From Escherichia coli (GTDB lineage Bacteria; Pseudomonadota; Gammaproteobacteria; Enterobacterales; Enterobacteriaceae), in NCBI RefSeq assembly GCF_003334405.1, contig NZ_QOWM01000028.1: a DNA stretch of 30,887 nucleotides, one strand, 5' to 3'. Of the stretch, positions 6,093 through 7,825 are shown one piece after another. The notes beneath the pieces were generated by a model. It saw only the letters and a program-made list of their open reading frames with translations. It did not search any database and had not been told where the DNA came from. The position numbers were made by a program, and so were the translations under genes. Within the stretch, counting starts at the first letter, position 1. Each line of letters begins with the position of its first letter.

Positions 6093-6138
6093 GAGTAAAA
6101 ATGACTCGCTACCCGCAGCAGGCGAGTCATTTTTACTC
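6093..6138. promoter_or_regulatory. Perfect 17-bp inverted repeat separated by 12 bp; probable ZraR enhancer (UAS) shared by the divergent zraP and zraSR promoters
   Basis: GAGTAAAAATGACTCGC (6093..6109) and GCGAGTCATTTTTACTC (6122..6138) are exact reverse complements. They sit between two divergent sigma54-type promoters, as expected for an NtrC-family activator site. Confidence 0.65.
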
Positions 6139-6658: not shown

Positions 6659-7360
6659 TCAGAACGTTTTCTCGTTGGGTTGCCAGCGACAGAAATCAGA
6701 GTTTGCCACTAACAGTAATTGCGAACCTTCGGGCGCTTCCAGCCATGCCACGCTGACATCAACAGAAGAGCGGCTCTGGCGGCGCTCGATATGCGCTATC
6801 GCCTGCGAATCTAAATCAGGTTTAATGGTTTGCCCTTCGCAGGTGGTCACGGTCTGTTCCATCGCATGCCAGCGCCCCTGGCGCAGCACGACTCTCCCCT
6901 GACGTAAGGCATCGCTAATCTGGCGGATCTGATCAGCACGATAACGGTATAAATCGATTTGGTCGTTAGAAAGCTGCTGCTTTTCCCCATCGGATTCACG
7001 TTGCATAAAGCTCAGATCACCGCGATCGTCAAAACGCGCGCGAATATTCACCGGCGGTTTGCTGTAAACATTGATATTGATGAGCGTGAGGTTATCGCCC
7101 TGCCAGCGATACTCTCGCGTCGTGGTATCGCCACTGCGCCACGGGCTAAACACGGCAAGCAGATGCACATTATCGCCGCTGTCTTTTCGCCAGATGCGTA
7201 CCGCGCCCTGGTCTTCAGCAAATCCACTGGCGGTAAAGGGAGGAAGTGAAGAGTTATGACTACAGGCAGTGAGAAGCAGAGCGCCAGCCAGCATCAATGA
7301 TCGACGCCAGAAAGACAAAAGGGGTGAAACCACCCCTTCGTTAAAACTGTTCACTGCCAC
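6659..7360 (-). CDS. yjaH: Uncharacterised putative lipoprotein (DUF1481 family)
   Basis: 233-aa ORF with a GTG start 6 nt after the hupA stop. N-terminal RR...LMLAGALLLTAC looks like a signal peptide with a lipobox (LTAC). Exact start is uncertain; the E. coli annotation is about 231 aa. Confidence 0.8.
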   Translation of the reverse strand: MAVNSFNEGVVSPLLSFWRRSLMLAGALLLTACSHNSSLPPFTASGFAEDQGAVRIWRKDSGDNVHLLAVFSPWRSGDTTTREYRWQGDNLTLININVYSKPPVNIRARFDDRGDLSFMQRESDGEKQQLSNDQIDLYRYRADQIRQISDALRQGRVVLRQGRWHAMEQTVTTCEGQTIKPDLDSQAIAHIERRQSRSSVDVSVAWLEAPEGSQLLLVANSDFCRWQPNEKTF

Positions 7361-7366
7361 GCAATC

Positions 7367-7639
7367 TTACTTAACTGCGTCTTTCAGTGCCTTGCCAGAA
7401 ACAAATGCCGGTACGTTAGCTGCGGCAATTTTGATTTCTTTACCGGTCTGCGGGTTGCGGCCAGTACGCTCAGCGCGGTGGTTCACTTTGAAGGTACCGA
7501 AACCAACCAGTTGTACAGCATCGCCTTCTTTCAGAGACTCAGTAATTGCAGCCAGAGTGGACTCCAGAGCAGCTTTAGCCTGGGTTTTGGACAGTTCTGC
7601 TTTCTCTGCAATTACATCAATCAGTTGAGTCTTGTTCAT
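7367..7639 (-). CDS. hupA: DNA-binding protein HU-alpha
   Basis: 90-aa [93 protein letters not shown], the HU-alpha sequence. Confidence 0.97.
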
Positions 7640-7734
7640 AAGTTATCCTTACAATGTGTTTATCGCTTGCTAAGCATCGAGTGCGACGGAAATGCCAGAA
7701 TAGCACTCTCCTGCATACACGCACCGATAGCCAC

Positions 7735-7775
7735 TTTTTTTCGCCCCCCAAATGTAGACCAGACGGGGGGCGAAA
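7735..7775. repeat. GC-clamped stem-loop (11-bp stem TTTCGCCCCCC / GGGGGGCGAAA, 15-nt loop) in the yjaG-hupA intergenic region
   Basis: Inverted repeat read directly from the sequence; preceded by T7 on the plus strand. It is not followed by a U-tract in the direction of yjaG or hupA transcription, so it is not a canonical intrinsic terminator. Confidence 0.6.
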
Positions 7776-7825
7776 GGGAAGACTCCAGGTACGACAAATC
7801 AGGCGTTAAATCACGTTTTCTGGTC

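Follow-up and report, generated by a model that had tools for sequence, protein, structure and literature searches.

What is the function of the GC-rich inverted repeat that lies between yjaG and hupA in Escherichia coli? The window analysed here, a stretch of 30,887 nucleotides, is a piece of the E. coli chromosome in reversed orientation compared to MG1655. On its minus strand yjaG (7826–8416), encoding a DUF416 protein of 196 amino acids, is located upstream of the repeat, and hupA (7367–7639), encoding the 90-residue HU-alpha, is located downstream, which agrees with the gene assignment made in an earlier note on this DNA. The intergenic region between the two genes comprises 186 nt (7640–7825). 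According to the list of open reading frames, nfi and hemE are further minus-strand genes at the locus, and zraP is on the plus strand. Among 5426 complete E. coli genomes, 5421 match a 301-nt query over the region, each of them a single time, and in 5407 the identity is at least 99%; the matching stretch is annotated there as “yjaG: YjaG family protein” and “hupA: nucleoid-associated protein HU-alpha”.

The two arms of the repeat are TTTCGCCCCCC at positions 7739–7749 and GGGGGGCGAAA at positions 7765–7775, both given on the plus strand. Read on the minus strand, 7765–7775 becomes the upstream arm TTTCGCCCCCC and 7739–7749 the downstream arm GGGGGGCGAAA. The arms are 100% complementary and 15 nt apart, exactly as expected from the earlier description of an 11-bp stem with a 15-nt loop, and the C-run of the upstream arm occupies 7765–7770. 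The repeat is indeed present in the span 7735–7775 previously assigned to it, but position 7735 is the first base of a run of seven T residues (7735–7741) and not the start of the stem. Folding confirms that the stem is very stable: a 66-nt context folded as RNA gives –27.3 kcal/mol (z = –3.07) for the minus strand and –25.8 kcal/mol (z = –2.96) for the plus strand, and the element folded as single-stranded DNA gives –14 kcal/mol (z = –3.9).

A search of the 30.9-kb window for perfect inverted repeats with arms of 11 bp or more and loops of 3–20 nt lists nine, of which five are a single repeat at 6093–6138 counted at different loop lengths; five are distinct, compared to 0.2 per shuffle when dinucleotides are shuffled. 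The pattern CGCCCCCC-N10-20-GGGGGGCG is found a single time in the window, and none of 100 shuffles contains it. Under the shuffle null, a perfect repeat of 11 bp is thus unlikely to arise by chance. The element is also single-copy, with a median of one place per genome across the 5421 E. coli genomes, and the 56-nt element gives the same result in sensitive blastn. Like the REP/BIME and ERIC elements it is an intergenic palindrome in an enterobacterial genome, but it differs from them in being single-copy and in having no sequence similarity to those families. A comparison of positions 7560–7900 with Rfam 15 yields no match at the gathering score or at E ≤ 1. The longest palindrome of the window is the one at 6093–6138, a perfect 17-bp inverted repeat, GAGTAAAAATGACTCGC, with 12 nt between its arms, just upstream of zraP. 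It is probably the ZraR (HydG) enhancer-binding site in the divergent zraP/zraSR control region.

Published maps of transcript ends place the start of hupA transcription inside the inverted repeat. The sequence strings in published Term-seq tables give the relation between the two coordinate systems: the window position is 4207920 minus the coordinate in NC_000913.3 (MG1655). The hupA ATG at 4200281 then corresponds to position 7639, and the element corresponds to 4200145–4200181. Relative to the ATG, the known start of hupA p1, determined by S1 mapping and primer extension, lies at –105 (Kohno 1990; Claret 1996; compiled in Mendoza-Vargas 2009, PMC2760140), and the directed start-site mapping of the latter study likewise gives –105 for hupA (PMC2760140). 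This places the start at 4200176, which is position 7744. SMRT-Cappable-seq reveals a primary transcript of 4200175–4200605 that contains b4000 alone, with 52 reads in M9 and 45 in rich medium (Yan et al. 2018, PMC6131387); its start at 4200175 is position 7745. On the minus strand both start positions (7744 and 7745) fall on a G within the G6 run of the downstream arm. The earlier note had proposed that a lack of transcript 5′ or 3′ ends near the element would speak against it; instead, the 5′ end of hupA maps within the element.

When the minus strand is numbered from a start at 7744, each part of the repeat coincides with a part of a promoter. The putative –35 hexamer TTCCCT (7780–7775, –36 to –31) matches the consensus in three of six positions, and the upstream arm begins with the base that ends this hexamer. 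It is followed by the 18-nt spacer TTCGCCCCCCGTCTGGTC (7774–7757, –30 to –13), the –10 hexamer TACATT (7756–7751, –12 to –7; four of six matches), the discriminator TGGGGG (7750–7745, –6 to –1) and the start G at 7744 (+1), after which the transcript continues from 7743 (+2) with CGAAAAAAAGUGG. TACATT ends 7 nt before a start at 7744 and 6 nt before one at 7745, which is canonical spacing. The upstream arm (7765–7775) thus extends from –31 to –21, with its C-run at –26 to –21, and the “loop” GTCTGGTCTACATTT (7750–7764, read on the minus strand) from –20 to –6. The downstream arm (7739–7749) covers –5 to +6, i.e., the G-rich discriminator, the start and residues +2 to +6 of the hupA mRNA. The A7 run (7735–7741), seen as T7 on the plus strand, constitutes +4 to +10 of the mRNA and is predicted to be unpaired.

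The inverted repeat is thus very probably the core sigma-70 promoter of hupA (hupAp1), in which the complementarity of spacer and discriminator is a by-product, and not a terminator or a structured RNA. As a feature it is already known, namely as the mapped promoter hupAp1 (Kohno 1990; Claret and Rouviere-Yaniv 1996; RegulonDB): it has the same locus and the same –105 start, corresponds to the segment from –31 to +6, and shows no substantive difference. The complementarity itself, we infer, has no function. Points that weigh against the promoter reading are the improbability of a perfect 11-bp repeat under the shuffle null, the C-run/G-run complementarity that most genera keep, the strongly conserved spacer and the poor –35 hexamer of E. 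coli. Of the three roles suggested previously, that of a site for protein binding in the promoter region of hupA comes closest, in that the element is the binding site of RNA polymerase and extends from the final –35 base across spacer, –10 hexamer and discriminator to +6. A full-text literature search revealed no paper that names both yjaG and hupA and none relevant on the hupA discriminator. Leaving aside the Kohno 1990 and Claret 1996 originals, no paper on self-complementarity of the hupA promoter was found.

The promoter scan makes no call in the window because the –35 hexamer of E. coli is poor (three of six). At the same 18-bp spacing some orthologues have TTCACA (five of six) and are called by the scan; in the orthologous loci L036 (2137–2142) and L082 (1537–1542) the consensus scan calls TTCACA-18-TACATT as the sole promoter-like site. 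Two other candidates were rejected. The plus-strand sequence AATGTA, the reverse complement of the –10 hexamer, would form part of an antisense promoter but lacks the T at position 6. The sequence TGcTATTCT (7702–7694), considered as an extended –10 element, has its key A replaced by T in almost all other genera and is located downstream of the mapped start.

How does this promoter position relate to the possibility that the stem terminates transcription? In common with intrinsic (Rho-independent) terminators, the element is a GC-rich intergenic hairpin downstream of a gene, with a distance of 50 nt from the yjaG stop codon to the stem, and it could end either the yjaG transcript on the minus strand or an unannotated transcript on the plus strand. 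Unlike such terminators, it has no U-tract at its 3′ side on either strand. The earlier remark that an A-tract follows the stem is correct, as the sequence after the stem is A7 on the minus strand, and on the plus strand it is AAAGGGA. The loop of 15 nt, the lack of covariation described below and the lack of a mapped 3′ end also set it apart. In the terminator scan the element is not called; the only call is the hupA terminator hairpin (7339–7318, minus strand).

Term-seq tables that give the sequence around each 3′ end are available from Adams et al. 2021 (PMC7815308). The supplementary text searched contains no 3′ end at 42000xx–42001xx on either strand, although a minor end may be missed, as the text may be incomplete and yjaG is weakly expressed. 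The nearest 3′ ends listed there are 4200251 and 4200253 in the hupA leader, 4200389 inside hupA, and 4200605 at the hupA terminator. Similarly, the SMRT-Cappable-seq end table, as far as accessible, records no termination site from yjaG to hupA. In the extended-operon list of that study (PMC6131387), b4000 and b3996–b3998 are paired with a variant that comprises b3996, b3997, b3998, b3999 and b4000. By the definition used in the paper, this variant implies that one or more full-length reads extend from nudC across yjaG into hupA (nudC-hemE-nfi-yjaG-hupA). With no 3′ end listed and with read-through into hupA, yjaG has no terminator of its own at this position. The earlier judgement that yjaG does not have a standard intrinsic terminator in this stem is therefore borne out by the missing U-tract, the missing mapped 3′ end and the observed read-through. 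Its suggestion of a plus-strand terminator does not hold up, since the stem lacks a following U-tract and the accessible Term-seq tables show no 3′ end there for either strand. The available data already refute a terminator at this site, and we regard that explanation as almost certainly wrong.

The mapped start has a direct consequence for the RNA. The hupA mRNA holds only 6–7 nt of one arm (GCGAAA or GGCGAAA), and since its start is inside the downstream arm the main hupA mRNA cannot form the hairpin. In the mechanism that we propose, RNA polymerase would bind the element and produce a leader of 105–106 nt followed by hupA, with the transcript ending at the hupA terminator. Only read-through transcripts from nudC-hemE-nfi-yjaG, which are a minority, could form the hairpin, and it would not terminate them.

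Conservation across relatives distinguishes the promoter from a selected hairpin. We scanned genomes with YjaG and retained the best 80 loci, which come from about 25 Enterobacteriaceae genera; protein look-ups added four loci of greater distance, from Dickeya, Erwinia, Pantoea, and Atlantibacter. The relatives were sampled down to about 84% YjaG identity, a range outside which Yersinia, Serratia, Proteus, and Vibrio were left. In 77 of the 80 loci hupA follows yjaG, with an intergenic spacer of 185–187 nt that is almost always 186 nt. The alignments are near-invariant from the C-run to the hupA ATG, and the 55 nt adjoining yjaG vary freely. Nucleotide diversity (π) was calculated for 58 distinct Enterobacteriaceae sequences. 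In the yjaG-proximal part, which represents unconstrained upstream DNA, π is 0.195. The value is 0.198 for the –35 hexamer and 0.247 for the TTCG of the lower upstream arm, the latter including one gap column. It is 0.075 for the C-run, 0.004 for bases –20 to –13 (alignment columns 63–70) and 0.000 for the –10 hexamer. For the G-run that constitutes the discriminator and start π is 0.110, for +2 to +10 it is 0.019, and for the rest of the leader it is 0.029. The corresponding values at third codon positions are 0.39 in yjaG and 0.15 in hupA.

The –10 hexamer TACATT is invariant in all 64 aligned sequences, which come from three families including Erwiniaceae and Pectobacteriaceae. The entire “loop” is invariant in the alignment denoted A1 and is the most conserved part of the element. 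A frozen loop together with a lower stem that drifts about as fast as the unconstrained upstream DNA is the opposite of what a selected hairpin should display, where conserved pairing and a freer loop are expected. Judged from the alignments, the conservation profile is that of a promoter and not that of a hairpin. At the –35 position, TTCACA is found in 15 of the 58 Enterobacteriaceae sequences (Kluyvera and others) and also in Dickeya, Erwinia, and Pantoea, and Escherichia has TTCCCT. This drift from TTCACA to TTCCCT in Escherichia helps to create the perfect lower stem of the palindrome.

The G-run appears as GGAGGG, GTGGGG, GGAAGG and similar variants in 27 of 58 sequences, without any compensating change. 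GGAGGG, with a G-to-A change at alignment column 80 in mid-run, is present in one E. coli strain (L002, SCPM-O-B-8794) and in 19 of the 58 distinct Enterobacteriaceae sequences. The discriminator tolerates this G-to-A change even though it breaks the palindrome. A C-rich spacer and a G-rich discriminator are shared more widely, each conserved separately; a complementarity of 5–7 bp between C-run and G-run is kept in most genera, including Pantoea.

We also counted the helix itself on alignment A1, in which 62 distinct Enterobacterales rows and 11 pairs give 681 cells, and compared it with 500 shuffles. Paired cells make up 80.5%, compared to 80.3% in the shuffles, and 190 of the 500 shuffles equal or exceed the observed share. 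For covariation the score is 0.061, compared to 0.057 in the shuffles. Changes on both sides of a pair occur in 3 of the 681 cells, and five pairs depart through unpaired cells alone. In 24 of 62 sequences a G-to-A or G-to-T change in the G-run disrupts pair 60–80, at the centre of the C6/G6 clamp, with the opposite side unchanged. Pair 53–87 is broken in 43 of 62 and pair 51–89 in 32 of 62. Only six of the 62 sequences keep all 11 pairs, and predicted hairpin energies lie between –24.4 kcal/mol (E. coli) and –7.6 kcal/mol. The perfect 11-bp form thus characterises Escherichia and a few others. The conservation and covariation analysis that the earlier note had called for accordingly finds pairing no better than in shuffled controls. 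A processing or stability stem-loop, which it had suggested, finds no support, with covariation absent and with a main hupA mRNA that begins inside the downstream arm and hence has no hairpin. Nor does the element have the marks of a structured cis-regulatory RNA or sRNA: compensatory changes, an Rfam match, and both arms in the hupA mRNA are all lacking.

Both arms occur together only in read-through transcripts, and in these an RNA hairpin could act as a pause or partial attenuator, as an RNase III/RNase E processing signal, or as a 3′ stabiliser of yjaG mRNA after processing. Read-through transcripts that would contain the hairpin do exist, E. coli has a strong version of it (–24 to –27 kcal/mol, z about –3), and a weaker hairpin is predicted in most genera. 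We nevertheless find such a role improbable, as covariation is absent, the mid-stem breaks in 24 of 62 sequences are uncompensated, and the loop is more conserved than the stem. Furthermore, the accessible Term-seq tables list no 3′ ends near the element, the A-tract that follows the stem is the reverse of a terminator tail, and promoter function already accounts for the conservation. Apart from the stability of the E. coli version, nothing supports a role for an RNA hairpin.

The repeat could instead act at the level of DNA, as a palindromic operator or as a cruciform. Extrusion under high negative supercoiling would hide the –10 hexamer and switch hupA off; alternatively, the repeat would be bound by a dimeric regulator or by HU, which has a preference for cruciform DNA. 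Either variant would result in autoregulation or in activation by DNA relaxation. The repeat spans –31 to +6, the region that such a switch needs, and it contains the C-run and bases –20 to –13, whose conservation is otherwise unexplained. HU reportedly binds to cruciform DNA, in work attributed to Pinson in 1999, and a paper by Kohno from 1990 is, by its title, said to concern autogenous control of hupA; both topics are thus present in the literature. In addition, hupA is reported to be among the genes activated by DNA relaxation (review, PMC8301835).

Against this stand the cost of extrusion and the conservation pattern. The 15-nt spacer makes extrusion costly: we estimate at least +27 kcal/mol, from duplex stacking of –55 kcal/mol versus about 2 × –14 kcal/mol for the hairpins, whereas the energy released would be approximately 10 kcal/mol at an effective sigma of –0.025 and approximately 26 kcal/mol at –0.06. 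Complementarity is not maintained across genera. Neither conserved complementarity nor favourable estimated energetics of extrusion thus mark the element as a cruciform or a sensor of supercoiling. Horwitz and Loeb are said to have constructed, in 1988, a synthetic cruciform-regulated promoter with an artificially selected repeat and a short centre. The hupA element resembles it in that an inverted repeat overlaps core promoter elements, and differs from it in its centre of 15 nt, its complementarity that is not conserved, and its energetically unfavourable extrusion. We know of no regulator with a C6-N15-G6 site. A DNA-level operator or cruciform is for these reasons very unlikely in our view. 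The chance is slimmer still that the complementarity of C-run and G-run is itself functional on DNA, as a supercoil-sensitive palindrome that hides the –10 hexamer when high negative superhelicity extrudes or distorts it and is possibly bound by HU. If true, it would imply homeostatic, relaxation-activated and autoregulated synthesis of HU-alpha.

Returning to the core promoter hupAp1, the complementarity of its C-rich spacer to its G-rich discriminator would be a by-product of two separately constrained promoter segments, and in Escherichia this complementarity would have been lengthened by a few unconstrained bases. Given a weak –35 hexamer and a –10 hexamer with four of six matches, the G-rich discriminator on the non-template strand probably contributes through sigma region 1.2, and upstream activators probably matter for hupAp1, as judged from general knowledge of promoters. 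Work by Haugen and by Feklistov, both in 2006, is said to have established that contact with sigma region 1.2 is favoured when the non-template strand carries a G two bases downstream of the –10 hexamer. The element resembles sigma-70 promoters with GGG-type discriminators and long spacers in its weak –35 hexamer, 18-bp spacer, –10 hexamer with four of six matches, and TGGGGG before +1. For promoters with G+C-rich discriminators, however, activation by relaxation as reported for hupA (PMC8301835) is not the usual prediction, and an effect of the discriminator is putative.

Conservation of the spacer bases –26 to –13 far exceeds what is usual in promoter spacers, and a simple promoter reading leaves that unexplained. 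This stretch of the spacer has hardly changed in Enterobacteriaceae, and neither have the G-rich discriminator and the entire 105-nt leader, which goes past the normal needs of RNA polymerase contact. Such conservation suggests undescribed regulator sites or leader constraints in the control of hupA. A strong-looking hairpin between co-oriented genes is easily mistaken for a terminator or an RNA element, and in this case it is the promoter of the gene for a major nucleoid protein. The element has little importance beyond annotation hygiene.

The 5′ UTR of hupA (7640–7744, minus strand; 105–106 nt) is nearly invariant in Enterobacteriaceae, with a π of about 0.03 in the leader compared to 0.39 at the third codon positions of yjaG. 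Its predicted fold is no more stable than those of shuffled sequences (z = –1.2) and leaves the first 10 nt unpaired. The end of the leader near the ribosome-binding site is a RaiZ/ProQ target in Salmonella (Smirnov 2017, PMC5391140), and this is the only part of the leader with a known role. Term-seq 3′ ends are found in the leader at –28 and –30 (positions 7667 and 7669), corresponding to a leader RNA of approximately 77 nt (Adams 2021, PMC7815308). As no hairpin or U-tract precedes them, these ends may originate from processing or Rho-dependent termination. In Dickeya fangzhongdai (L081, about 1620–1745) the leader contains an insertion of approximately 125 nt with the core GAATCCCCGTGAGCTTACTTGAGTAAGTGAATGGGGTGAGCG, and the flanking leader is still conserved. 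The insertion core GAATCCCCGTGAGCTTACTTGAGTAAGTGAATGGGGTGAGCG resembles what we assume to be an ERIC/IRU element.

Upstream of the promoter, one motif stands out from the variable stretch that surrounds it. This motif, AAAACGTGA (7811–7819, minus strand), is located at –75 to –67; it occupies columns 7–15 of A1, which are invariant or nearly so, and it is also conserved in Dickeya, Erwinia, and Pantoea. It may be an activator half-site, as it resembles the TGTGA half of a CRP site. Control of hupA by CRP and Fis is reportedly the subject of Claret's paper of 1996, judging by its title. A full CRP site at 7818–7797 was rejected, as its right half is poor and not conserved. An effect of RstA on hupAp has been reported (PMC6047807), and a candidate RstA box at TACATTTGG was discarded as only a half-match. 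The 8-bp repeat AGACCAGA/TCTGGTCT was likewise discarded, as its upstream arm is not conserved.

Two further observations concern other parts of the window. The open reading frame list includes yjaH at 6659–7360 on the minus strand, with a GTG start at 7360, and both the hupA terminator hairpin and the mapped 3′ end at 4200605 (position 7315) fall within the 5′ part of this reading frame. The true start of yjaH is therefore probably further downstream, or else yjaH is read from hupA read-through transcripts. Rfam matches elsewhere in the window are sroH at 17433–17593 (201 bits), the thiC TPP riboswitch at 11640–11740 (74.8 bits), and “P26” on the minus strand at 26929–26990 (74.5 bits).
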